Source: Camelus dromedarius (taxonomy: Eukaryota). From it: DNA of 64,000 nucleotides. Positions 3,954-57,191 of the stretch are shown one piece after another. Below the pieces are notes generated by a model. It saw nothing but the letters and a program-made list of their open reading frames with translations, was not told where the DNA came from and did no database searches. The position numbers and the translations under genes were made by a program. The stretch covers positions 7,440,001 through 7,504,000 of the forward strand of contig NC_087436.1 of NCBI RefSeq assembly GCF_036321535.1. Reading direction: 5' to 3'. Positions within the stretch are counted from its first letter, which is position 1; each line of letters starts with the position of its first letter.

Positions 3954-4090
3954 GGTGGGGGTATAGCTCAGGGGTAGAGTGCCTGCTTAGCATGCACAAG
4001 GTCCTGGGTTCAATCCCCAGTGCCTCCATTAAAAATAAATAAAATAGATAAATAAATGTATTACCTTCCCCCTAAAAGTTAATAAGTAAA
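3954..4090 (+). mobile_element. tRNA-derived SINE, camelid Vic-1 type
   Basis: GGTGGGGGTATAGCTCAGGGGTAGAGTGCCTGCTTAGCATGCACAAGGTCCTGGGTTCAATCCCCAG. Pol III A box ~3964-3974, B box 4007-4017, (AAAT)n tail. Loose TSD AAAATA(G/C)TAAT. Confidence 0.85.
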
Positions 4091-7772: not shown

Positions 7773-10644
7773 TAAAATGCCCTGCTTTTGAGACTTATTT
7801 CTAGGCTACATCCGAAATTGCTGGCATTGGTATTGGAGTTGACTAAACATCCTGTTGGCCCTCACGTCTTACAGCCTGATGGGGGAGGTTATCCACTTCC
7901 TATCCCTGGATTTGGACTATCTCCTTGTTCCTAAGATGGTAAGGATCTTGTGTTAACCTCTATTTCAGAATTCACATTTGACTCTGAATTCCCTGTTTGT
8001 TCAAGTCTTGTGGACCAGAAAGGTGTTGTAAAGATCTGAATCTCATCAGCGTGTTCTTTTCCTACACAAAACGATGGACTCTGAACAGATCCAGCGATGG
8101 TAAAGCTCAGTATGGAGGCTACTTGCATGACGTGTGGATTTAGGTATTTATGTTTCAAAATCAGGATCATTCTGGCCTTCCCACTCACTTCACTTTTAAG
8201 TTCTACAGCATCATTCACGTGGTTAACTGTGAGCATGATTATCCTTCCGTAGGACAGCTAGGTAAACGCTTATCCATTTTATTGTGTGTGTATTTTTGGT
8301 GGGGGAGGGGATGACAACATTCAGGTTTGATTGCATGCTGTTGATATAATTGTGAGAAGAAAACAAAGAAAACCGGAAACAGGCAACTGTTCCTCTCTGT
8401 GGTTGCAACATTTGATAGTAGGTAGAGTTTGAAACAGACCCGTCTGTAATAATTGAACCACCATTTTCTTTTTTACAGTGGGAGCGTAGCTCCAACAGAA
8501 CCAGGAAATATCACCGGAAATCAGCTGGGACTTTAAAATAGTCACATATCTTGTGACAATTAGCCTATAGAATTTTCTCATTACTTTAGAGTCTGATCCA
8601 GTAATTTCCTGGTCCACTGACAAGGCCATTCGTACATAGTCACAAAGAAAAATATTGTATTTAGAAGGCCTTCTGAATGAGAAATCTACTACTTCCTTTT
8701 ATGAATACTTTTTATATCAAAGAAATCAATATTAGGAAGTGTTTCTTTACATTTAATCTGAATTATAAGAAGCAATATTTACAACTCTCAGCAGCGTGGG
8801 TCACACTCTTAACACATCTTTAACTCATTTCATCTTTGCTTCTTGATATGTTCTCTAAATATAAGAAAATAAAGCTTTGAAAAGGAATGATATTTAACAC
8901 CTATATACAATGATTCTAAAATTATTTTTTTAAAAAAACTGTTTCAGCTAGGGAGCCAAGTGCTGTGTACAGAAATCTCAGATAAGGAGATATAAATATA
9001 TTCTTTCTGTTGATTTTGCTATTTTTGTTAAAGGTTGAAATTCCCTGAGAAGCCATCATTCCTGCTGCAAAAACAAAATTAAACTCAGTTCACTAGCTGT
9101 TAAATGCAGTTGCATTACCTTGAGTCAGAAGAACTTAATCCTTTCTTTAATTGTTTTCATCTACTTAAGTTTCTAATAAAATTCCTTAGACAAAAGTACA
9201 TTGTTCTTCTTTGGGTGGTAGTGGAAATTATGGGTCCTAAGTTTAATATCTGCAAAACATTTTCATTTTATAAGAAAGACTGATTTTGCTTAATATGCCC
9301 CACTAAAAATCTTTGTCTGCCTAAATGAGTTTGAGGTCATCTTTTTGCAAACTTTTTTAAAAAATGTAAGTCATATAGATTTTCCTTTTTTTAGTTGACT
9401 TTTTGGAGTACATTGGTTACAGCAGTATGAGTTTAAGGTAGTTGGAATGGGATGGAAATGTTGAGATGTATATATGTTTCCATAGAAATTACTCCATAAA
9501 TCTGTAAGAAATGCTCCGAGTGTGTTTGTGAATAATGTGTTGTGCTTCGAGTGGGATACATTTGTTCCTGGGCATATGCATTTTACAGAGCTCAGATTGA
9601 GTCTCCTGGATTGCACTGGAAAACATGTCAACTTTGTACAGTAGGTTTCTGGATATAGCACGTGTCTATTCAAGTTCAGTAACATAATCCAGTCTTCCTT
9701 TTGGGGCCAAAATGCTCATCTTTGACTGTACTCATTGTCATCCATCAAATCATATGAAAGTTACTGGATCAAAAACTAGATTTTCAGTTCCTAGAGCTTT
9801 TATAATACCCATACAACTCTGAATATTTCAAATGTATAGACTTTTTATAACACAGGAAACAGATTTTTATAACCTATTCCAGGCAACATTGTATATTTCA
9901 GAAGTCCTACGAATGTGATTCTATTCAGTTCCCCAAATCTCAAGAAAGTAGCATGTCTTTACAACAGACCCATGAGGGGGCCTATTTTTATGTTGTTGAA
10001 AGCTATTAGGAGTGTGATTGTGGCAAATCTCCTTAGAAGAGTGAAGAATATTCATGCAGAACTTTCTTCAAGTTCTTATTCAAAAACATTTGCTTGCAAG
10101 ATTACATCTATGCTAGACTAATGGGTTTTGGAATGGGGTGGGATTTTAAATTAGAATAATGTGTATCCTTTTTACTACTTTTTCTGAACGTTATTAACTT
10201 CCATGAATTAAAAAAAGACAACTGTGCAGACCTCTTTCAAGCTCACTTAAATTTCATCTAAGAAATAAATACAAAATATGTGCCCCCCCCCCCGGTGTAT
10301 ATTAAACGTAAGTTAGATTGATTTGAAATCTTAATGATAGGTTATTCAACTTTCTGCAAAACACAAGCCAATAATCACTCTGTCTATGCTCATTTTTAAT
10401 TAAAAAAACAAGAAATAGCATGATAGTCTTTTAACTCCATGGTTAATACTGTGGCAGATGCATAAAGTGATGCCTAAAAGGTTCATATACTGGAAACCAC
10501 TTCTCACTTTGTAGCAAATTAGTAAATAGGGTTTCTCCACGGGTGAAAGGGAGAAACCAATGGTTCTGCCTTTCGTAATGTACTGGTTTAACGTTAGGAA
10601 ACATACTAAATATATACCCTGTTATGGTTAAGAAATGTTAGTTA

Positions 10645-10880
10645 AGCGCACCAGATGGCGGCGCCCAGCGAAGTAGAGGCTCGTTCCTTTCCCCACTGCC
10701 CCTTTGGGCTAAAATCGCCGCGACCCCAGAGGCCGGGGGCCGGGCGGGGACAGGGGCACCTGCGTAGTTGGACCGCGAGCCTGCGCCCGGCCTGCGCCGC
10801 CCCCACCCGGCCCCGGCCCGGCCCGATCCCTTCCGGTCCCGGTCTCCTGGGTCTGACCCGTTGCCCGGCCGTGGTACGTC
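10645..10880 (+). promoter_or_regulatory. CpG-rich 5' segment of the RNF26 retrocopy with YY1/CTCF-like motif and GC boxes
   Basis: About 28 CpGs in ~235 bp by hand count. CCAGATGGCGGC at 10651-10662, GGGCGGGG at 10742-10749, CCGCCCC at 10797-10803. Confidence 0.55.
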
Positions 10881-13370
10881 AGCACCAGGCCTTCAAAGCT
10901 GAGGCTTCTCATCCAGCCCGGGATCACCGCCACTTTGGAAATGTTCGGCCTCTTTCCTCCCAAACAGCCCGCCTTCAAAACCGGGGCTCCTGGGCCGGTA
11001 CCTGGCTCCCTTTCCCTCACCCGAGACTCCACTTCCTTCCAACCCACTTCCTCAGATCCTCCCTGGATTGGAGCCTGCTCACTTCTCTTCCAAATTAATT
11101 CCTGAACTCCCCAAATATTGACAGCTCTGACACCCCCCTCAACCGGGAGCCAGACTTCCTTTTGGGTTAACCTCCGTAGCACCATCGTGGAGGCTGTGTG
11201 TTTGGCAGTGGACGGGGTGGGCCTGTTGCTGGATGTGCTGACCGTGGTGTTGGACCTCAGCTTCCTGCTGGTGTCCTCCCTCCTGGCCTCCCTGGCCTGG
11301 CTCCTGGCCTTCATCTGCAACCTGCCACACACGGTGCTGACTGGCCTTCCGCACTTGCGCCGCGGAGCCTGGCTTTCACTGCTGGCCTTGATTGAAGCCG
11401 TGGCCCGGTTCACCTCTGGGGGCTGCAGGCCTTGTGTACCATACTGTACAGCTGCTATTCTGGTCTGGAGAGCTTAAAGCTCCTGGGGCACCTGGACTCT
11501 CACGGGGCGCTTAGGAGCCGGAGACCCTGCACCGGGGCATCCTCAACGTGGTCTCCAATGGTCATGCTTTGCTGCGGCAGGCCTGTGGCATCTGTGCCAT
11601 TACCATGAGCCTGGTGGCCTGTGTGATCAATAGCCTGGTCAATATCTGCCTCATTGGCACTCAGAACCTCTTCTCCCTGGTGCTGGCCCTGTGAGATGCA
11701 GTGACGGGGTCGCTGTGGAGGATGACAGATGTGGTGGCTGCCTTCCTAGCCCATATTTCCAGCAGTGCTGTGGCCATGTCCATCCTCCTCTGGCCCCCCG
11801 CCAACTAGTACTGGAGCTTCTGGCCTCAGCTGCCCGAGTCCTGGCCAGCTGTGTGCTTGTCAATCTCACTGGCCTAGCGCTGCTGGCTTGTGTGCTGGCA
11901 GTGACGGTGATTGTGTTGCACCCGGACCTCACCCTGAGGCTAGCCACCCAGGTCCTCAGTCAGCTCCACGCCCAGCCATCCTACCACCGACTTGGAGAGG
12001 ATGTTGTATGGCTATCTCATCTAGCACTAGGCCTGGAGGCCTGATGCCACATCTGGAGCCAAAGCCTGCAGCTGGTGAGCTGGCCAAACCGGGGATGGGC
12101 ACCTGGGGCCCCCCAGGGTGGTCCTAGGAGGGTGCCCTCAGCCAGGACCTGGCGACAGGACACTTTTCTTGAAGTAGGGCTCAGATCAGAGGTAGAAGAG
12201 AAGGCAGTCAGGATGGCCTGGGTGACAGCTGCCCGGGGCCGGGAGAGGCTCAGCGTGGAGGAGCCTGTAGCTGGGCAAGACCCATGGAAGTTGCTGAAGG
12301 AGCAAGAGAAGCGGAAGAAGTGCGTCATCTGCCAGGACCAGAGCGAGACGGTGCTGCTTCTGCCTTGTCAGCACCTGTGCCTGTGTCAGGCCTGTTCCGA
12401 AATCCTGAAGCGCCACCCTGTCTACCACCGCAACTGCCCACTCTGCCACCGGGGCATTCTGCAGACCCTCAGCGTCTACCTCTGAAGACTCCCTCCCTGT
12501 CCGCCTGCCCCGCCATGCTCCACACAGCCACCTGCGCGAGGACAGCTGTAACACCCGATCTCTGGGTCCCAGACCGAATCTCCTCTGGCCCTCTGCTGAA
12601 CCTGAAGCCATACATCCCGGACTGTGACTTGGATGGGGGCAGGGTAACAGCTTTTCCTTACCTGGCGGGTCCCCGTGATGCTGAGTGTGGTGAGTGTGTC
12701 TCACCACTCAGTGTGAGACTCTGGACTCCCCTTCAGCTTGCCAGGGCCCAGCCAGATGCAAGTGTCTGGGGCTCCTCTTCTCTGCTTTTGGTGTTTCTGT
12801 TGGGGATTTGTAGGTTCTCTCCCTGCTCCCTCCTCACTCCCTCCCCAGCTTCTGCAGCCATACATATCAGTGTCGTTTGCGTGTTTTGGCAACCCTAAGG
12901 CCTTGGGATGATCTTGAACGTCTGCTTCCAGCTGGAGCCGCTGGGCCCTGGCAGGCTTTGGGGGGTAGTATCTCAGGTGCCCTTAAAGCTACCACTTGTA
13001 GCTGTCATGATCTTATGAGGCCCCCTCCCGACCTGATCCAACAGCTGGGATCAAGAGTTAACCCCGGGGATGTGTGTGTGTGTTTGCACCTGGCTTTGGG
13101 ACCGTGTACCCTCTGGCACCCCAGCACCACTGGGAGCCTCAGGAGGGACAGCGGATTTCTGCTCATACACCTTTCACTCCACACATCACAGAGAAAAGCG
13201 GTGTTCCACTTCTGTTGGTCTCTCCTTGGCACTGGGGAAGGCAGACTGCACATTCCACTAGGGTCCAAAAACAGAAGGGGCCAGGGTGTAGGGGCATGCA
13301 GCTTCCTGAGGGGTCTGTCTGGCCCAGGTTCCAGGGAATAAAGTTCTGTTATAGCTCTAAAAAAAAGAGA
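10645..13370 (+). pseudogene. RNF26: Processed pseudogene (retrocopy) of E3 ubiquitin ligase RNF26, full-length with 5'UTR, CDS remnant 11187-12485 and 3'UTR
   Basis: Translates to (V)EAVCLAVDGVGLLLDVLTVVLDLSFLLVSSLLASLAWLLAF.. and ..QDPWKLLKEQEKRKKCVICQDQSETVLLLPCQHLCLCQACSEILKRHPVYHRNCPLCHRGILQTLSVYL*, matching RNF26 as recalled. Lesions: ATG>GTG at 11187; 1-nt deletions at ~11423, ~11520, ~11798; TGG>TGA at 11692 and 12042. AATAAA 13337-13342, A tail 13359-13370. Perfect TSD AAGAAATGTTAGTTA at 10630-10644 and 13371-13385. Confidence 0.96.
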
Positions 13371-13519
13371 AAGAAATGTTAGTTATGTTTTTATTAAATT
13401 ATACGAGAAAAGTAGAATCAGGAGGCCAATGGCTGGGGTTTGACTGGTTTTGTTTGTTCATTTGATATTTGTTCAGTTGGAGTTGAGGTCTAAATGACTT
13501 TTCTTTTTCTTAAACCTAA

Positions 13520-13568
13520 ATTTTTTTTTTTATTGAAGTATGGTCAGTTATAATGTGTCAATTTCCAG
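13520..13568 (-). mobile_element. Very short L1 3'-terminal fragment
   Basis: T tract followed by TATTGAAGTATGGTCAGTTATAATGTGTCAATTTC, the same terminus as the 4978 element. Confidence 0.7.
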
Positions 13569-13569
13569 A

Positions 13570-13730
13570 AATTGACTTTGAATCAGAGCTTGGGCTATAG
13601 ACTGAAAGGTGCCTTGGCTTTCTAGTAGCTGCAAAAGCCTTTGGGCAAGTTATATATCCTTCACTAAGTTTTAGTTTTGTCCTCTTGTAATATGGAAATA
13701 ATATAACAATCCCTACTTCAAAGAACTGTG
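13570..13730 (+). mobile_element. MIR fragment
   Basis: GACTTTGAATCAGAGCTTGGG..CTTTGGGCAAGTTATATATCCTTCACTAAGTTTTAGTTTTGTCCTCTTGTAATATGGAAATAAT resembles the MIR core. Confidence 0.65.
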
Positions 13731-13749: not shown

Positions 13750-15560
13750 TCTATTTTCCTTCTTTTACTATTTACTCTCCTCTGGGAATCTCACCAATTC
13801 TCAGGGATTTTAATCCCGTCTTTAAGAAAATGACGATGTCTCTAACACATGCCTCTCTTTTGTGCTTTAGATGCGCATTTCTACTTCTAACTTATTCATT
13901 TCCACTTGTATGTCTCACAGATGTCTAAAACCTAACATACCTCAAATTTTTCCTTGTTTTCCATTCAAAGAAATTATCTTTGATTCTTCCTGAAACTGAG
14001 TTGCCCTAAAACTGAGTTCCCCTGCCGAGTTTATGATTAATTTCTTTATTCAAAACTTTACTCCCTTTCTTGTCCCACCCCTGTTCTTCTCAGGATTGAG
14101 AAGAATCAAGGAAAAGAAAGGACTGAAACCTAGCAGGACCCCGCAGAGCCCTCCCAGGTACAAAAGACCCTCAGTGGCCCCTGTTTCTTATTTGTAGAAA
14201 AGGTTTTAATCTCCTAGACCTTCCCTGAGTCCCAAAGAATAGATCCAAGCAGTTACTAATTAGGGAAGTGAGGGAACACAGAAACAATGGAAAAATAGTT
14301 AAGTAGGAAAAGTGATGAAAATAGTTCAGAGATAAAACAGAGTCCTGATTCCTCCTCAAGGGATACACATAACAATCTGATGCATAACTTTGAGTTGTTC
14401 TGCAGAAACTAAGACTCCCACCATATGGCAGAGGGTGACCACAAGCACATAGACCCCAGACTGGTTAGAACCAGAAGATGGATGATTAAGATTTCTGAAG
14501 CACCACCTTGTTACCTCATCACCAATCAATCAGAGGGAAGTCATGCCCCTTGCAGCTCTCACCCTCAAGTTTGCTTTTTAAAATGCTTTGCTGAAATCCA
14601 CCAGGTCCTTTGAGCACTAGCTGCCCATTCTTCTTGCTGGGCGCCCTGCAATAAATGCTGTACTTCCCTTCACTACCACCTGGTGTCAGTGGATTGGTTT
14701 TGCTGCATTGAGGGTGACTGGATCCAAGTTCAGTTTGGTAACATTCCCTCCCTTAACCCCCCAGCACTGAGCCATTAACAGTCCTGATTCTATTTCTAAA
14801 ATAAAACTTTATTCTCTCCTTTCACCTCCAGTGCCAGCTCCTTAGTCAAACCACAACCATCTTCTGCTTAGACTGCTCCCAGAGTTTACAATCTAGTTTG
14901 TCTTTTCCTATTCCTGTGTCCCTCTTACCCAGTCTCCACGTTATTGCAGCTGAGATATCTGTAGCTCCTGAACCGCACCACATTCTGCTTTGCATTCTGT
15001 AGTGGCCTCCACTGAATTTAATATAAAGTACATAATTGTTACTACGGCTCACAAGGCTCTTCATGATTTCCTGGTGCTTATCTTGTCAGATTTAGGTTAT
15101 GCTACACCTCTTCAAGCTTGCCACACACAAGCCAGACTGTGCTTCCTTCAGTTCTGTGACCACTCCATGCTTTCTGGACCTGGCTGTTTGGTATAGGGCG
15201 TGCCCTTTGCATGGCACCCACCTCTTGCCTCACACTTCAGTCTAGCTCTTTATATGGTTTCTCACGTTAGGCTTAGTTTAAAGATGTCTCCCTCCGAGGT
15301 CCTCCCTGATGATCCTACCTGAAGAAGATCTTCTTGTGGGATTCTCTTTATCTCTTGTGAATTTCTATGACAAAATTACTTTATTATTTATTAGTTTGCT
15401 TTCTTTTTGATTTGTATTCTCCATGAGAAGTTAAGCCAAGTGAGGACATAAATAGTACCCGACTAGGTACCGTCTAGTCTGGGACATCACTCTCTACCCA
15501 GTAACTAGCACAGTCCCTGGCAAATAGTTGACACTGAAAAAAATACATGTTGTTTGAGTA
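13750..15560 (-). mobile_element. Old L2 element, interrupted by the LTR at 13991-14743
   Basis: L2-like motifs (TTCCACTTGTATGTCTCACAGATGTCTAAAACCTAACAT; CCACAACCATCTTCTGCTTAGACT; CTAGCACAGTCCCTGGCAAATAGTTGACACT) continue across the LTR. Confidence 0.65.
13991..14743 (+). mobile_element. ERV1-type solo LTR
   Basis: TG...CA termini (TGAAAC..GGTAACA), 4-bp TSD TTCC at 13987-13990 and 14744-14747, AATAAA ~14650. Homologous to the element at ~56500-57191. Confidence 0.8.
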
Positions 15561-18500
15561 TATTTACTGAGAAGATGCATGGAAAGACGATACACAGTGT
15601 CTTATTTACATCAAGTGTTTAGTAACTGCTATCTGAAAGAACCTGAGTTCTTACCTCTAATCCTGGTTGTAGGATAAGTGAGTGCTGGGTCCTGTTAAAA
15701 CAATAGTAATTGACCTTGATGGTGTCTGTTTGTTTGTTTGTTTGTTTACTCTTTATAGTTTTTTGGTAAAGTTAATTTTTTTCTCTTATATAATTTCCTG
15801 CCAAGAACATTTGAATGATGATTATAAAATAGCAGTATAGTAATAGGAGGGTTGATGGTCTTCAAATACATGAACTGACAGTCTTTTGATTCCATAGGTC
15901 AATTGTTGACTAATTATAAACATCACCAATCATCCAGTTCAGTTATAATCATTAAAATGCCTTGTAATCATTAAAACTCAGAAAGAAATAAGAGAAAATA
16001 AAAGAAAAATGGGTGAAATCGTGTTTTAGGCCCTCTTAAAAAAAACCCAAACTCCGAACTGATGACATTTTGTTACGTCTAAGAAGGATGACTGAGTAGT
16101 CTCTGTGGAGAGGTTGAGGTGAGGTGGGAGGTAACATGCTGTCCTGTCTCCTCGGCCAAGTCCACACGGCTGATGTTTGTCAGGTTGGCATCTGTAGCTC
16201 CGTTCTGAGGATGGTGTAACTTGTGATGTGGTCTCTTTCAGTTTGGGCAAAGCTCCACCTCCCCTCCACCGTGGGCCTCCGTGAACTTCTGCTTCTATTT
16301 TCACTCAGTCCAAGCCTGGGTAGGGGTGCAGGCTTCTCCGATGCAGCCCTTGCTATAAAGCACTCTGCTTTCCTAAGATATACTCCATATCTGCCTCCTT
16401 CTGCTGATACTGCTGGATTTCATCCACCCAAAAGGAATCAGATGGTGGCCCCTTGGGTTGATTTAGAGCAGTGTCAAAGGGAATCTCTTTTCACATCTTA
16501 GACAGAAGGTTGGGATGGGTGTCAGTATGTAAATACCTCCCAAACCACGGAAGACATTTCCCTTTCACTGAAATGAAGCCCCAGGAGAGGACAGTTGGAC
16601 ACAGATATTTGGATATTTGTTTTTCCCTCTCTCCTTCTCTCTCTCACCAATAATCTCCTTGAAGCAAAGGGAGGTTTATTTTACTCACCCTATTTTGTAG
16701 GATAAAACAGTGGTCTTATTTTCCCAAGAATAAGAGACACTTTATTTTAGGAGAATATAGGATGACGTAAGTCTTCCAGGCCTAGTCTCTCCTAGGTTGC
16801 TAAGGGGGAGGAGATAAGTGCATCTGAAGAATCCTTTCTCAAAACAACCACCCAACACCCTAGTCTGTAAGGAAATTTCTTCCTGCAAAATTCAATTTTG
16901 TTTAACAGGCAAAATATTACCAAGTCTTCCCTCTGATCCCTTTATATTCTTTCTTGAAAAGTTCTAAATGGATGCCTTTGGTTGAAAGATCAGATACTCA
17001 TAAAGGTAATCATAAAGGCAAAAGAGATAATTACGTTCATAATTGCCTAAATATAGCCTCCTTATACCTGGCATTCACACTGAACACAGAGTTAGAAGGA
17101 ACAGGGGAAGATTTGATACAGATGTTAATTTAGTCAAGAGGAAAAAATATGAAAAAAAATAGTGATCTTAAAAGGTATTTTGAGATGCCTTTGAGTTCAG
17201 TTCACCTTATATGAATGATGCTGGGTTAACAGGTAACTAGTTTCTCAAGTTCAAGGGGCTGAATATGAATCTGTCTTCAGTGAGCAGCATAGCCTGCTCT
17301 GGTTGGCAATATTTAAATTCAAAAGTTGTTGTCTGCTCAATCTTCTCAACCTCAAATTCTCCTCCGCCTACCCTATACACATTCAATCACTTGTCCCTGA
17401 TTTTGCCTGATTTAGTGAGGAGCAAGGTCTATGTAAAGAAGTTGCTCAGTCAGCACTTAGGAAAAAGAGGCAAAATTTGTAGCGTTGGCTTTGCTGGAAG
17501 ATAAGCTGTAAGGAAAGGCTGCAGTTATTAAACTAAGATAGTGAGTGTTAGCTGCCTTTGCCAAGAAGTTTATTATAATAGGATGTGGATCTTGTTAATT
17601 AACTCAGTAAAAAGTACTAAATCTAGAAGATCTTCTCTGGAAAGTATAGAAGAGGTGATGTATATGCTCTAAAGAGTGCTATAAAATCGGCACCTTTTCA
17701 TTCAAAAATGAGTAGTGCCTACTACGTGCAGCATACTCTGCTGGTGGGCAAGAGAAATTGTGCATTCACACCACCTGGAGGCACCACGATGCAGTATTTC
17801 AACGACAAAGTCAAGATCTGGGTACAAAAGAGAATTTTTTTAAAAGCAATATCAAGACTTAATTACACAGTGCTTGAAATGTCTGACCTACTTTGAGGTC
17901 GTAAAATTATCAACAGTGGATATTGAGTAAGGGAGCTTTTGAAGACTGAAGATACTTTTTGGAGTAATGGTGGGGTGATGGTGGTGTATGTCTAAATCTG
18001 TGCTCCCAAAAAGAGCTTGATAGGTGTCTGCAGGTGCTGTGGGAGAGGATGGATGGGTGTCAGACAGTGGGCAGAGCAATCGCAAGGCAGGAGGCTGCCA
18101 CTACCAGTCTAAGGTAGGGAAGCAGACGGAGGGAGGGAGTCGGGCGGCTTCTGTAACTTCACCGTGGTCCAATTCTACATGTGTAAATTGAAAATAATGT
18201 CTGTTTTGAACAGTTGTTGTACGTTCTAGCAAGATTATCCATGTTGAGTATATAGCTGACTGCCTGACACTTAAAGGTATTCAAAATTTAAGGCTAATTA
18301 TTTATTAATATTAAAGTAACAATAATTGTTCTTATATTCGCAGTCCTTCTCGCCCTGCCCCAATTATCTAGGGCTGGAACCGGCAATGGGGTCCTGACAG
18401 CAGTGTCCGGTTTCTAGATGCTGTCCTTTCTCGGTCAAGCTAAATGGGCATAGACCCAACTGGCTGGATAAAGCATTCAGGGCTTTGTCTCATTATGTAT

Positions 18501-19670
18501 CGGAAAGTGATTCCTTACTTTTCTGTTTTTTGGCCGTAGTGTCCATGGGTGTGATGGCTGTGCTCTCTCTTGTGCATGATTCACTCTCTAACTTTTGATG
18601 GAGGGTCGAGCAGCCTCCCCTGTTGGGCACAGAGACCTCAGATGATTCAAAAGTCAAACTGATATGAGAGTTTGATTCCTTCACTCTGAGAACATGGTGA
18701 GAACCTTTTCTTCTAGGAATACAGGAGCATGTGTGACTTCTTTCCAAGGAGAGAAAGGACTGCATTGCTGAGTTCCTCTCGCTTTGGGCGCCAGGTGCTG
18801 GGTCAGTGAAGACACGCAGGCTCCGTGAGACACTTAAGCTGCAGCGTCTTTGGATTTTGCTCCTGTTAACAAGACCAGAACCAAAACCCAATGAAGATTT
18901 AGGGAAAGACCAGTAATTAAACTTTTTCTTTTCTCTTAGCTTGGCCAGTATTTTGGATTCTTTTAATCTAAAACAAACAAACAAACATAACAACAAAAAA
19001 AACCCCCAAACCTTTAGAATTGGTCCAAATTCCTTTTTTGTTTGATTTGGTTTGGTTTGGTTTGGTTGAGATGAGGGTAGGTGACTTAACTATTTATAGG
19101 CCAGCCTGCTCTCAAATCTGTCTCCAGAATGCAGTAAAAATAGAAATGATCATTTTTTTTGTCCTTTGTTGATAAACAAATTGGTTGAAAATATTCAATG
19201 ATTCCCAAGAAGGTGTATATTGTTACCGGCCCACATTCTGAACTCTTTGGGGTTAGATGGGCATCTGGATTCCGAATCTTAGAAAGGCAATAAAGCGCAT
19301 GTGTTACATATTACATAACCTCGCCAGCAGCGTCTAGGCAACAGCTTACAATCAAAGCTGTTTCTATTTCTGTTACACTTCTGTGAAATATGCAAACGGT
19401 CCAGCGAAGAGGGCTGAAATAAAACCAACAGAGCCTCCCGTCAGTTCAGCATGGGTTTTTGGTGCCAAATTTGGTTGGGTTATGTCAACTTCTGCTCGTG
19501 AATGAGTTATAAAAACACATTTAGATTTTACAATCTTTAGATTTTGGAATTTCACCTGAGGGGTTGCTAACCTTATAATCCTAACTAACCAGATTGTACT
19601 TGGAAGTGAAAGATAGTGATGGAAGGTTTTCATTTGTGCCCAAATTGTACAAGTGTTTGGAACAATCCCA

Positions 19671-30177: not shown

Positions 30178-32096
30178 CAAACACTTTCATAGTCACCAAT
30201 TCTTTATTCACAACCTGAGTCTTATTCCATTTTTTTACAATGTTTTGGAAATTTTTGTTTACTTTTTAGTCATTTAAATTAAGTAGTCTTTAATACATTC
30301 TCCCTAAGTGGCAGCAAACCTCTTAGAGTCCTTTCTGATCCAAACCTCATATTAATACTGTCTGCAGACCTGCCCTTTTGACTATTATGGTGTTGATTTA
30401 TTTTTGGTGTTAACTTAATATTATTTAAGCAAGAGAAGTCATTTATCTTTTACTTTTTATTCCCGATCACTGCCTTTACTATAAGAGATATGTAGATTCA
30501 AAAGGCTGGCTAACTTATGGGTCCATGCAGTCAGAAATATTTACGTTTTTGGTTGATGACAATGAAGACACTCCACTGGGGACAAAAGTTTTCTTAAGAC
30601 CCCCCCCAAAATATGCCTTTAATGGCCTTTTCCATAAGTGAAATTAGATGGATTATTTGTTGCCTTGCAAACCTGGCTTTGTCCTAAGTTGCATAGAAAT
30701 GCATGTCTTGAGTGGCGAGAAGAAATCAGGACAGGTTGTATGTGTCCGTGGATTCCACCAGGGTGGTGTTCTGTGTCTTGTTACATTTTAGTGGTTTTTA
30801 CTCTCTAATTATAATTATTAACATCATTTTCTGAGCTTATAAAATAGTTGATTCACGGGACAGATACAAAAAGAGGAGAAATACCCTCAGAATTGGAAAA
30901 TTAATAATAAAAGAAGGAAGTGATAAAAGGGAAACAAGTGACAGAAAAGAAAAGAATAATGAACAAGTGTAAATGCAGATAAAACAGCTCGAAGGGTATT
31001 CTGTTGAGTGTTCAGTTAAAGTCTTTTTACCTGAAAGTAAAAACAAAGTAAAATAATAAGCTTCTAAAACTCTACTGCTGATTTCACAGCACAGTATCTC
31101 TCTCTTTGCATTATTTGTGGTGTGTGTTTTAATTTTTTACATGTTATTAAAAGTCATTAAATGACACATCTGCACAGTGGCTTTAAACCAGCAGTGAATA
31201 AACCTGCCATTTCAAGGTGCAAGTCGGAGATGCAGAGTTTCAGATAACCGAATGTAAATCCTTTATCAGATTTCAACTTGTGCAGGACTTGAAGTGAAAC
31301 ACTATGAAAACTTTAACTTGTTTTGTTATTGTCCTTAATACATTGTCCCTTAATACACTGACAGACATATTTACAAGCTAAATATGTATAGGAAATTACA
31401 AGTAAATCCTTTTTAACTTTGAAAAAAAAGTTCCATATATAGATACTATATTTTAGAAAAATGAAAAAAAAAGATAGGCACTTTTATTGATGGAAACGAT
31501 TTAATGAGAAAAAAATACTTCTAATTTTAGATATCTGTATTCTGTATGTCAAAGATGCATTCTCCATCTTTTGTCACTGCAGCTCTTCCAATAACTGGAT
31601 GGTAAATTTCAAGGCATGAATCCTATAGGAGAATGTGACATTTATTCACTCATTTGTGAGATAAAAATATGTCAAGACCCAGCATATGTCAGTTCCTGGG
31701 CTAGCTATTTGAGATTCAGAGAGTAAGTCATGACACCTGCCACCAAGATGCTCACAGTCTCCTTGAAGATTCTTTCAATGATTTTTTTTTTCTTTCTGGA
31801 AACAAACCATCAAGGTACTCATAAGATTGTGAAAAAGAGGCCATGCAGCAGTAGAAGAGAGGCTAAAGTTTGGGGCATAAGGAAAATTTTATCATAGGAG
31901 ACAATATCTGAGATAAGCCTTAAATGAGGGAATAGAGAAAGAGAGCGCTTTAAGTAGAAGCACATAAAAAGGCCTGATATATTCACGACACTTCCAGAAG
32001 TTCAGTATTGCAGGGTCAGTGGTTTATGTGGAGGCAGATAAGTAAGAAGCTTATAGCATCCAGATCTTACAAAATCTTGCGTGGCATGTTGAAGAG

Positions 32097-32109
32097 TTTC
32101 TTTCTTTTC

Positions 32110-32200
<91 letters not shown>

Positions 32201-32221
32201 TTCTTTCTTTCTTTCTCTCTT

Positions 32222-32253
<32 letters not shown>

Positions 32254-32269
32254 TCTTTCTTTTTTCTTT

Positions 32270-32349
<80 letters not shown>

Positions 32350-32423
32350 TCCTTCCTTCCTTCCTTCCTTCCTTCCTTCCTTCCTTCCTTCCTTCCTTCC
32401 CTTCTTTCTTTCTTTCTTTTTTT
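32097..32423. repeat. Compound polypyrimidine microsatellite (TTTC)n/(TC)n/(TTCC)n
   Basis: About 325 bp containing only T and C on the + strand. Confidence 0.98.
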
Positions 32424-33689
32424 GTGCATAGGCTATGGGGGAGTAGAGTTTAAAAATTCTACTCTTCATCTAGTTTATCAAAGGAGCTCTTTTAAAGTGT
32501 GTAGTGGGAAGTAATATGTCAGATCTCTAAATTAAAGCTACTTCGCCTTTTGGCAATTTGTTATTTGGTAGATCATTGGTATGGTCAAGAGAGATTATAT
32601 TCTAAGTGGTGTATAATCCTAAAGTCCACCCTTCCCTCTCTTTTGGGAGGTCAAGATACAAAAGGAATGGATGGTTATTTTATCAACAAATAAGGATATG
32701 AATATGAATTCTGTTTCCTTGAATATTAATCAGATCTGCCCTATCTAAGTAAACTTCTCTTTGGTTGGATCAATATGTGGACCTAGACCCCCGCTAGATC
32801 CTATACACTTTACTGCTGTCTCTCCACCCCGGGAAAGACTTCATGTCTGGATTTAAATCAATCGCCCTAAGTCTTTGCAGAAATACAGAAGTGTTTCTTT
32901 CAGATAAATGAAACTAAACAGTTTAAAAATTAAGATAAATATAACCACACAGTAATCTTTGCTTTCCCACTCCATTTCCTGATAAATCAGTCAGATAATC
33001 AAAACAATGGAAGATGTCTTGGGTCAATTAACATGATATAGTTGAAATACACTCACATACCAACTACACAGATGTCCCTCTTTGGCTTAAATTTCATTTT
33101 CTCTTAGCTAATTTTAAATAGAAGGAGTCTCATATTTTTAATGTTAAAAATAGGCAATTTTAATTTGATTTTTCAAATGAGAATCTATTTGAAAATCATC
33201 ATTTTGAAAATTTTTATGGAGGGATTTAGTTTTTCAGTTTTACTTTCTCAATCTTTTCTCACAGTACTTTATTAGTGAATTTAGCAATATTCTTCTGAAT
33301 TTAGCAATATTCTTCTGCATTGGCTCTTAATGTAAGTTAAAATAAATCAGTCATGGGAAATATATTTCTTTTCTAATGTGTGACGTCAGTCAGAGTCAGA
33401 AAATGGGCAGTTGTGAGATCTACATTTGAACTTTAGGTCAGGTTTACACAAATAACTCATTTTAGAATTATTAAACAATGTCATATGGACTTTGATGTAG
33501 ACAAATGATAAAATTCATATAAGTGTATAACTTAAAAAAATATACATTGGATTTCTTTGAGAACAAAAACAAAAATAAGCACATTAAAGGAAGATGCTGG
33601 AAAGGTCTGAAGATGAAGGCTTTGCAGTGATTAGTATCAGGGAGCTCTAAATGGTCTCACAGAAATCGTACAGGAGTTCCATGGACTAC

Positions 33690-49260: not shown

Positions 49261-50706
49261 TTCGTGCTAGGAAAGCTAGTTATTTGCTAATAACTTATCA
49301 TTTTGAGATGATAACTCAGTAGAAGATCTCTGTGACTGAACAATTAAAAGTCTATTTAGGTTTTGATGTTTCATATAATGTAGGGTTTCCTCCACAAAAT
49401 GAATAATTACTACAAAATTGACATATATGCCTCCAGGGTTGTTTCAGCCTAAAAATGTTAGAGCTCTTAGTGTGATATTTAACCATTAAGGATCATTAAG
49501 ACGGTACAGCTTCCGAGAATAAGAGTCAAATTTTTCCCTTACACTGTGATCTTTGCCTTGTAATTTACATGTGTGACTCAGACTGAAATTTAAATGAAGC
49601 CTTTTTTGAAACCTTTGGCCCACCCCACTATCTCCCTTAAGCAAAGCTGCAGAATAGACCTAGCAGCCAGTTAGTCAGAAATGAATCAACACCCTCGTTC
49701 ACTTAACCCACTCGGTCAGTTGCCATTGCACAGAATAAATTCTTAACTTCTAGAATCTTCTAACTGTTTTAGTTCATGCCCTTTTTTTTTTTCCTGCAAG
49801 ATAGATTCAAATCTGCTTTATAGTTCCATTTATTTCTTTGTCCTGCTCTATTTTTGCTTTTCTAGGTCATAAATCCAGGAAAAGTTTCAAATGTCTTGGT
49901 CTTCACAATTCACGCGTGGTGGTAGATCGGATCTTTCAGCCTGGGCTGTAGCAATGTGTCAACTGAATGGGGGAAGGAAACCATAAACTTTGAACTGGAA
50001 GCCAAATGTACACAAATAAAAACTCTCTTATTTCTTCCGTAGTTCCATCTCTTACTAAGGAGCTTCTTTTATCATTGTCATGGATTTCGCTATGCTTCAG
50101 AAACATACTGCGGACTATTCAGTTGGAAAAACATGAAAAAAAAGAAGCTACTGAGAAAGTGCAGATATCAGTAGGCATCATTTTTTGTTAATTATCTTAT
50201 TTGTAGCTGACTTGTCATCTCTACCCTATTTTTCTATTGGATAGGCATGCTTTTTTGTTGCTGTTGTTTTTATAGACGTGGAGAAGATCAATGGATTAAT
50301 TGGTTGGGTGAATCAATAAGGTAGTAGAGAAGGCTTGTCTGTGACAGAAAGGAAAGCTGCCTGATTCTGAAAGCACAGCATTTCTGTTACCTATAAAGAA
50401 GAATTGTGGGTCTACAAATGACGAAGGGCCTCATCAGAATCGCCTGCCTCCTGTTTGATGTTGTAGGGAAAGTTGACAATAAGCGGAGTGGGCGTTTTCT
50501 CCTGCCTCCTTACTTTTCCTCAACTAAACATAATCCAAAACTCACAAATAAACCACGTGCAGTTCAGTGCCTTCAGTGACATCAGGAAACTGAACAGGCC
50601 CTCCGGCTCCGACTGCGACTTAGCCAGATGAGGAGAAGTCACCAACGAACACAAGTGACGTCTCAGAGGTGATGCTTGCTTTATGAGCTGCCATAGCGTG
50701 ATGCCA

Positions 50707-50721
50707 CCACAAGATGGCAGC
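50707..50721 (+). promoter_or_regulatory. Candidate CTCF site
   Basis: CCACAAGATGGCAGC closely fits the CTCF core CCASYAGRKGGCRSY. Motif match only. Confidence 0.45.
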
Positions 50722-50994
50722 GTTTCAGAACATGGGTATTTCTGACAGATGGCTGGTTAGCATGTCCCAGTTCCTGAAAGAAAAAATGGTGCTGGGAGAA
50801 GGAATGCCCTTATGTTTTTTCCCTCTTGACACACATGTTCCACACAAAAGAAATCACGGATGATTGATAGTAAAATCCTTGACAATGAAAAAAAAAAGGT
50901 AGAGTCATCATCCTTTAAGCAAGAAAGATCTAAAATTGTCTTCAGTAAGTTACTTTCTGCTCTCTCATGATATGTAACACACCATAAGATAAAG

Positions 50995-56499: not shown

Positions 56500-57191
56500 A
56501 CGGTTGTCAAATGAGCAGCAGAACATGAGAGAAAGAGGGAGTTCTGCAAGACTGAGTAATGGAAACTGCAGCCTTGAAACTGATCAGGACCCTGCGGGGC
56601 CTTCCTGGGGACAGACACCCATGTGTCTCCCGCCTCTTCTTTGAAGAAAGGCTTTAGCCTCCTAGGCCTTCCCCGAGTTCCAAAGAGTAAATTTAATCAG
56701 AGAGGTGAGAAAATGCAGAAACAAAGGAAAAGAGTCAAGTGAGAGAAAATAATAATAGTTTAGTCATAAAACAGTCAAGGACTTTTAATTCCTCTTCAAG
56801 GGCTAGAGATAATACCCTGAGTTGTATCCTTGAGTTATTTTGCAAGTACTAAAATCCCTACCAGTTGGAGGAAGCTAACTGCATGATGACCACTAGCACT
56901 CAGATGGGCTGGAAACAGAAAGTGGATGACTGAGATTCTCAAAGCATCACTCTGTTACCTCACCATCATCCAAGAGCTGATCATGCACCCCATGACTCTC
57001 TACCCAACATTGTCTTTAAAAAGCCTTCCCTGAAAGCCATCAGAGGATTTCAGGTCTTTTGAGCGTGAGCTGCCCATTCTCCTTGCTTGGCACCTGCAAT
57101 AAACACTGTACTTTCCTTCACCACAACCCAGTGTTAATAGATTGGCTTTGCTTCAGGTTGGATAAGCAGAACCAAGGTTGGTTTGACAACA
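56500..57191 (+). mobile_element. ERV1-type solo LTR (same family as 13991-14743; 5' boundary approximate)
   Basis: Shared blocks CAGGACCC.GC.G.GCC, CTCCTAG.CCTTCCC.GAGT.CCAAAGA, GCTGCCCATTCT..CCTGCAATAAA..CTGTACTT. Ends ..ACAACA. Confidence 0.8.

Follow-up and report, generated by a model that had tools for sequence, protein, structure and literature searches.

The window, by which we mean the whole 64,000-nucleotide stretch of DNA analyzed here, contains between positions 10645 and 13370 a processed pseudogene of RNF26 whose 5′ end is, by its sequence, a CpG island. The chief interest of the locus lies in an apparent gene conversion signature beside this island. Protection of the island in the germline is better supported than its exaptation as a live promoter, a proposal of the preliminary description that is unsupported given the neutral rate of change at island sites, the drift of its YY1 site and the failure to recognize a host gene. 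The reading that we consider probable is that of a neutral, self-maintaining orphan island, hypomethylated in sperm, that probably drew recombination. The features on which the argument rests are as follows (strand in brackets where one applies).

10557 to 10616 (+): host flank with CCAAT at 10557 and TATATA at 10611, 88 and 34 bases before the insert; weak
10630 to 10644 (+): 5′ target-site duplication, 15 bp, identical to 13371-13385
10645 to 13370 (+): full-length RNF26 retrocopy, recognized from target-site duplication, RING domain, ortholog alignments and A tail
10645 to 10880: CpG island core, from the TSS-proximal 5′UTR of the parent, 28 CpGs
10648 to 10662 (+): inherited YY1 site; at 10652, an A in orthologs completes a perfect YY1 match, where the copy has C
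10742 to 10747 (+) and 10797 to 10802 (−): two GC boxes
10881 to 11186 (+): remaining 5′UTR, CpG observed/expected (o/e) 0.44
11187 to 12485 (+): dead CDS with GTG start, three frameshifts and two stops
11187 to 11835: zone of AT>GC (W>S) excess adjoining the island, 15 W>S changes at 182 W sites and 3 non-CpG S>W changes at 154 sites
11836 to 12485: ordinary pseudogene decay, 6 W>S changes at 158 sites and 9 non-CpG S>W changes at 176
12486 to 13370 (+): 3′UTR, CpG o/e 0.25, including AATAAA and the A-rich tail
13371 to 13385 (+): 3′ target-site duplication, identical to 10630-10644

The insert is 2,726 bp long and comprises 5′UTR, CDS, 3′UTR and A tail, the poly(A) signal AATAAA occupying 13337-13342 and the A-rich tail the 12 nt of 13359-13370. 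RNF26 is a single-exon gene, and the copy is colinear with its mRNA. Translations of ortholog 5′UTRs align from 10641-10646 onward and none aligns upstream, which indicates that the retrocopy is full length; 2.7-2.8 kb is also the length of many Logan contigs encoding RNF26 in other mammals. The upstream promoter of the parent is missing, as ortholog translations that extend further upstream stop aligning, and about 18 bases of the ortholog 5′UTRs are absent from the copy just past the YY1 site, at approximately 10670-10683. The RING domain (PF13920) is still recognizable and the identity to cetartiodactyl RNF26 is 83%. The frame is disabled by the change of the ATG to GTG, by frameshifts near 11420, 11521 and 11797, and by TGA stops at 11692 and 12042. 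The target-site duplication, poly(A) signal and tail, colinearity and disabled frame identify an L1-mediated processed pseudogene, in agreement with the preliminary description of a dead RNF26 retrocopy. The duplication at 10630 is preceded by TT, resembling the TT/AAAA site of the L1 endonuclease. Between 0.91 and 0.95 of the words of 10300-13700 were present in 14 of the 24 runs listed, from 8 studies of one organism, so the locus is real genomic DNA and no assembly artefact. An LTR-like pair (14124-14707 and 56575-57155, 68% identical over 608 bases) has its first member starting about 740 bp beyond the 3′ end of the retrocopy.

In a tree of 28 proteins, the copy falls between the non-artiodactyls (support 99/96) and a group of a pig-like protein, ruminants, hippo and whales (90/69), which on this topology is the position of a camelid. 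Non-CpG divergence amounts to 39 of 672 informative CDS sites (5.8%), equivalent to an insertion age of 19-39 million years if rates between 3 and 1.5e-9 per year are assumed; at such rates, insertion into a camelid ancestor would date to roughly 20-40 million years ago. A common origin with the RNF26-like copy of hippo was considered and rejected: that copy groups with hippo RNF26 at 100/98, and of the 10 residues that it and the present copy have in common against a broad consensus, 6 also occur in the working gene of hippo. Degenerate RNF26-like copies occur separately in hippo, marmots, voles and others (P0004, P0060, P0067, P0091, P0092 and P0094 among them), and these show ordinary GC>AT decay.

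The changes sustained by the copy were counted against an ancestor that is a consensus of other mammals and not the camelid parent, so that some of them, most of all those in the UTR, may have arisen in the parent lineage. No camelid-named RNF26 protein was present among the proteins listed, and of 594 + 52 pattern matches to parental RNF26 DNA in metagenome contigs, none was confirmed. For the island, the ancestral state was read from translated RNF26 5′UTRs of other mammals, which enter protein collections as spurious gene calls in several frames of either strand. Back-calling used the bases that each residue dictates, in 21 of 32 such UTR proteins (P0221-P0252) sorted into 15 groups, P0249 being placed with P0221 despite a possible affiliation with P0251; the sources may include other RNF26 retrocopies, which the majority call across groups should absorb. 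This procedure recovered 188 of the 236 island positions, of which 13 differ from the copy; the other 48 had too few ortholog calls and were left out. For the CDS, the reference was a set of 19 named orthologs in which 394 of 433 residues are near-invariant, the remaining 39 being dropped. CDS counts skip 6 codons at frameshifts, and substitution-direction counts also omit 4 codons of ambiguous family.

The preliminary description of a CpG-rich 5′ end in an AT-rich, CpG-poor region is borne out. Within 10645-10880, 28 CpGs occur in 236 bp at a GC content of 74% and a CpG o/e of 0.87, compared with 38.6% and 0.24 for the window mean, and the richest 236-bp stretch outside the copy has 9 CpGs. 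The 5′ end satisfies both the rule of at least 200 bp, GC of at least 50% and o/e of at least 0.6 and that of 500 bp, 55% and 0.65, the 200-bp rule being satisfied across 10535-11065. Upstream, no significant CpG shore was detected, with 3 CpGs in 150 bp (p = 0.12) and 8 in 1,000 bp, as expected. Elsewhere in the window, a weak CpG-rich stretch at 50523-50750 also satisfies the 200-bp rule (9 CpGs in 236 bp).

The raw surplus of TG/CA in the CDS was rejected as evidence of decay, since codon usage and the history of the parent itself give rise to such an excess. With 38 CpGs left and survival of about 60%, the CDS would by arithmetic have started at an o/e of only about 0.45-0.5, so much of the contrast between island and body was inherited from the parent mRNA. 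The claim that the CDS had lost its CpGs is overstated: 10 of 24 Arg CGN CpGs were deaminated and 14 survive. Eight of the nine Arg sites that had been read as deamination products stand (R264Q, R276W, R279H, R288C, R289H, R293Q, R396Q and R422H), and the Trp of RTWR does not, being ancestral and normally present at this site in whale, hippo, deer, fox and bats. As a worst-case bound, if all 19 island TG/CA are taken as lost CpGs, the island keeps 28 of 47, equal to the CDS (p = 1.0); protection is therefore not provable from composition alone, and it was the ortholog read-out that settled the matter. By that read-out, 15 of the 19 TG/CA are ancestral in at least three ortholog groups, 3 are ancestral in two groups, and the last one marks a lost CpG. 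The dinucleotides of the island are likewise symmetric (CG 28/GC 29, TG 11/GT 11, CA 8/AC 9).

Measured against the proxy ancestor, CpG loss by deamination is unequal in the two segments, so the equal loss that would have counted against the preliminary description was not observed. The island lost 1 of its 24-26 ancestral CpGs in this way and the CDS 10 of its 24 Arg CpGs (Fisher p = 0.0016-0.0044); per base the figures are 1 of 45 island CpG bases and 12 of 60 CDS bases (p = 0.006), with R276 and R346 restored for the 12/60 and 10/24 counts. The island changes comprise one deamination (10782), one loss by transversion (10710) and two gains (10788, 10859), and CpG bases in the island changed no more often than its other G/C bases (1 of 45 and 3 of 99). 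In the remaining 5′UTR (10881-11186), none of 8 called CpG bases was deaminated and two CpGs were gained (10946, 11022). Arg CpG loss was 0 of 5 in the 5′ part of the CDS and 10 of 19 beyond residue 218 (p = 0.05); counted over all CpG bases, no gradient along the CDS is significant (p = 0.42-0.62). Because island CpG loss lies far below CDS Arg CpG loss, germline protection is supported: from insertion onward the island appears to have stayed mostly free of germline methylation, and the distal CDS, measured against the proxy ancestor, decayed as methylated DNA, as the preliminary description had proposed.

A second asymmetry concerns the direction of substitution outside CpGs. In the 5′ half of the CDS, W>S and non-CpG S>W changes number 15 and 3, and in the 3′ half 6 and 9 (p = 0.014). 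At the extremes, AT>GC and GC>AT changes occur at 10 of 86 and 1 of 68 sites within 11187-11500, compared with 4 of 89 and 6 of 86 within 12151-12485. This gradient emerged post hoc from 33 non-CpG substitutions; a split-free Spearman test gives p = 0.011, and p = 0.02-0.03 when the start codon and a codon beside a frameshift are removed. The W>S rate taken alone does not differ significantly between the CDS halves (p = 0.11). Equilibrium GC is 0.82 in the island and then 0.57, 0.89, 0.69, 0.47 and 0.39 in successive segments up to the end of the CDS, the middle UTR (0.57) breaking the trend, and is 0.81 for the 5′ and 0.43 for the 3′ half of the CDS on small counts. New CpGs have appeared as well, 4 called in the UTR and 6 at informative CDS sites.

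The skew is absent from the pooled controls. At the amino-acid level, AT>GC and GC>AT changes in the 5′ CDS half stand at 14:2 in the copy and at 15:28 in eight other RNF26-like copies pooled (p = 0.0004), the eight being drawn from 14 tallied "like" proteins so as to avoid close kin; the pooled proteins are non-independent, and their status as retrocopies rests on names ("RNF26-like") or on our choice. The corresponding ratio for 44 functional orthologs pooled is 31:68. The W>S changes strike residues that are near-invariant across the 19 orthologs, including the start Met. Sense-strand RNA editing by ADAR was rejected as their source, since both A>G (8) and T>C (6) changes are present. In the substitution record, the AT>GC excess that fades toward the 3′ end is the signature of GC-biased gene conversion at what would be a long-lived hotspot.

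The regulatory motifs named in the preliminary description are present, namely the GC boxes at 10742 and 10797 and a YY1/CTCF-like site at 10648-10662 with one mismatch to each consensus. The YY1 consensus CAANATGGCGGC has 3 matches in the window at this stringency, compared with 0.32 expected, and the CTCF consensus has 2, compared with 0.19 expected; a strict CTCF pattern has no match in the window, so that one mismatch had to be allowed. Position 10652 is A, giving a perfect YY1 site, in all 23 informative ortholog rows. The A>C change in the copy leaves it one mismatch off YY1 and reduces the mismatches to the CTCF core from 2 to 1. The YY1 consensus and its action just downstream of the start are described in PMC13017510. 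The only other CTCF-like/YY1-like site in the window, at 50707-50721, lies in the CpG-rich stretch at 50523-50750 and may be a genuine CTCF site or enhancer.

Across island sites that are invariant in at least 4 ortholog groups, 7 of 126 changed (5.6%), compared with 39 of 672 non-CpG CDS sites (p = 1.0), a sample that excludes strong constraint only and in which GC-biased gene conversion could mask some constraint. Divergence of the island at the neutral rate argues against strong selection and against refreshing by parental conversion. As for transcription, six RNA or RNA-like runs contain 0.22, 0.16, 0.14, 0.09, 0.09 and 0.09 of the locus words, where a parent 7-10% diverged would be expected to contribute approximately 0.03-0.08. 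These shares were rejected as evidence of transcription, as parent mRNA or DNA carry-over could account for them, and the run at 0.22 is a lead. The copy diverges by about 7% from the ortholog consensus, enough, it would seem, for reads to be told apart from those of the parent. By analogy with orphan islands, with 42-60% showing signs of initiation, some unselected transcription of the island is about an even bet.

The insertion site appears gene-poor. A comparison of the 249 ORFs of the rest of the window with Pfam, a test of low sensitivity that a very long intron would escape, returned none above the cut-off and two sub-threshold, and two exon-like ORFs had no Atlas match. Two segments without a Pfam or Atlas match deserve mention: a Ser/Thr-rich ORF of 126 codons on the minus strand (18496-18873) that follows a plausible splice acceptor and resembles a last exon, and a repeat-free stretch (7934-8698) with two minus-strand ORFs of more than 100 codons and several plus-strand splice-like sites. 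A tRNA-Ala-like element with an AT-rich tail at 3956-4029, the sole Rfam match in the window, is probably a simple tRNA-derived SINE, presumably comparable to the camelid vic-1 element, and fits the camelid placement of the copy. The name vic-1 is given to a camelid SINE family in PMC3531059. At approximately 32050-32450 lies a pyrimidine/purine simple repeat of the TTTC type, about 400 bp long.

According to the explanation that we favor, L1 inserted an RNF26 mRNA copy carrying the transcribed half of the parent's CpG island. The island would have stayed unmethylated in the germline, mainly in sperm, through its own sequence (CpG density and Sp1/YY1/CTCF-type sites), within a sloping shore of partial protection. 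Such an open, H3K4me3-type site may attract meiotic breaks of the PRDM9-independent kind, and GC-biased gene conversion would then add G, C and new CpGs, the island sustaining itself without selection. The AT>GC excess that fades with distance over approximately 1.2 kb from the island into the CDS, as measured against the proxy ancestor, is the observation that this scheme would explain. Weak transcripts would be possible, most likely in testis, and would require no selected function. More tentatively, and here we are doubtful, the 236-bp island may have founded a long-lived PRDM9-independent hotspot at which conversion feeds CpGs and turned the YY1 site into a CTCF site.

The principal rival holds that the island is an exapted element under selection, either a promoter (for an ncRNA or a distant gene) or a CTCF insulator, and that it stays unmethylated because it functions. 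On this view a CTCF site would have been made of the YY1 site by the A>C change at 10652, and the host flank would supply the CCAAT- and TATA-like boxes. The island is indeed intact after approximately 5.8% neutral divergence, its CTCF-like match has improved to a single mismatch, and CCAAT and TATATA stand at −88 and −34, although these boxes were found post hoc in AT-rich DNA. Signs of initiation are reported for 42% of human orphan islands, a share that rises to 60% when H3K4me3 is included (PMC2944787). Any new strong island stays unmethylated in male germ cells, however, so the survival of CpGs needs no function, and ortholog-invariant island sites have changed at the neutral rate, within the limited power of 126 sites. 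The YY1 site is off consensus, the parent's upstream promoter is missing and no host exon was recognized. A promoter derived from the parent is reported for approximately 3% of expressed retrocopies (PMC4772013), and SP1 motifs downstream of the start can repress (PMC13017510). We consider exaptation unlikely.

We hold it quite unlikely that there was no lasting protection or hotspot at all, in which case the contrast would be inherited, CpG-dense DNA would simply mutate more slowly, and the AT>GC changes would have their source in the lineage of the camelid parent, in a transient PRDM9 hotspot or in occasional parental conversion. The proxy ancestor, the small counts and a contrast largely inherited from a CDS of o/e near 0.5 all speak for such a reading, as does the suggestion that GC-rich DNA may deaminate less because of its high melting temperature (PMC11323403); the approximately ten-fold difference in CpG loss is in our judgement more than melting would readily produce. 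W>S changes at near-invariant residues and the start Met would not be expected in a working parent, and parental conversion would have cut the divergence of the island, yet that divergence is neutral. An imprinted or gametic DMR like CpG85, methylated in oocytes, unmethylated in sperm and possibly transcribed from one allele, would also account for low CpG loss, as male-germline hypomethylation is linked to lower deamination pressure (PMC3839921), and imprinted islands derived from retrocopies exist (PMC3839921, PMC4122923). We regard it as very unlikely here: where such maternal methylation is known, it goes with location in a host gene, of which a low-sensitivity search recognized none; the RB1 DMR stems from a coding exon of its parent and not from a 5′ island (PMC3839921, PMC4122923); and intermediate methylation was reported for 5 of 104 such intronic islands (PMC4122923).

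If the more tentative reading, which we doubt, is correct, retrocopies would seed hotspots and new regulatory sites without selection, by a self-reinforcing route. At ordinary promoters, the factors that may make a PRDM9-independent hotspot (hypomethylation, CpG density or real transcription) are entangled with selection. A full-length retrocopy is a natural, datable experiment that places an island in neutral DNA together with 2 kb of dead sequence of known ancestry, and the same test can be applied to every full-length retrocopy in any mammal, the degenerate RNF26-like copies of other mammals forming a ready comparison set. Spurious UTR gene calls in protein collections provide a reusable route to non-coding ancestral sequence. 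The surviving CpG island of a pseudogene is a sign of germline hypomethylation and not of exaptation.

The nearest precedents are other retrocopies. The intergenic PPP1R26 retrocopies of human and chimpanzee chromosome 22 likewise keep their 5′ island and have lost the CpGs of the body (Kanber et al., 2013; PMC3839921); there the exon-4 region was assayed for methylation, and no analysis of substitution direction was noted. For the RNF26 copy, protection has been given in numbers, and the island adjoins a W>S skew. CpG85 of PPP1R26P1, in RB1 intron 2, is also a retrocopy-borne island with its CpGs kept (PMC3839921, PMC4122923), but it originates from coding exon 4, is intronic and imprinted and is a proven promoter, while the RNF26 island derives from the 5′UTR and lies in no recognized host gene. 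Retrocopy-linked intronic islands are reported as approximately 75% methylated and 15% unmethylated in monocytes (PMC4122923), and PMC11295320 deals with how CpGs decay in non-coding retrocopies. Titles retrieved in our literature search, which most subscription papers lay outside, included none on the present RNF26 pseudogene.

The island behaves, as far as its substitutions tell, as a sperm-hypomethylated orphan island. Orphan islands, a class established from CAP-seq and data on chromatin (Illingworth et al., 2010; PMC2944787), similarly have promoter-like composition away from annotated promoters; the RNF26 island is an orphan by sequence, with a known origin in a dead gene copy. A new strong island, even one made of GFP, is unmethylated in male germ cells and methylated in soma, with protection that is independent of site and slopes off over shores of up to 2 kb (Grandi et al., 2015; PMC4509998). 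Those islands were engineered GFP inserts followed over mouse generations and have sloping shores, whereas the RNF26 island is natural, tens of millions of years old and without a detectable upstream shore.

With regard to recombination, GC peaks driven by it at starts are described in PMC11323403, and recombination at loci of conserved hypomethylation, as detected by the W>S signature, is strong in 33 of 52 mammals (Joseph et al., 2024; PMC11161765). None of the titles listed for PRDM9 and camelids concerned camelid PRDM9, and the word "camel" does not occur in the main text of PMC11161765. No report of a retrocopy-seeded hotspot of GC-biased gene conversion came up in the same range of literature, which most subscription papers again lay outside, the match obtained concerning tandem arrays by its title and the start of its abstract. 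The RNF26 locus resembles the loci of Joseph et al. in that non-CpG W>S changes are raised and S>W changes lowered, with a peak near a promoter-like hypomethylated feature. By this pattern it is a candidate PRDM9-independent hotspot. The loci of Joseph et al. are old, orthologous to mouse or dog hotspots and averaged over thousands, while the present case is a single lineage-specific island in neutral DNA. Retrocopies with a retained 5′ island are thus already known; a conversion signature beside such an island is apparently new.
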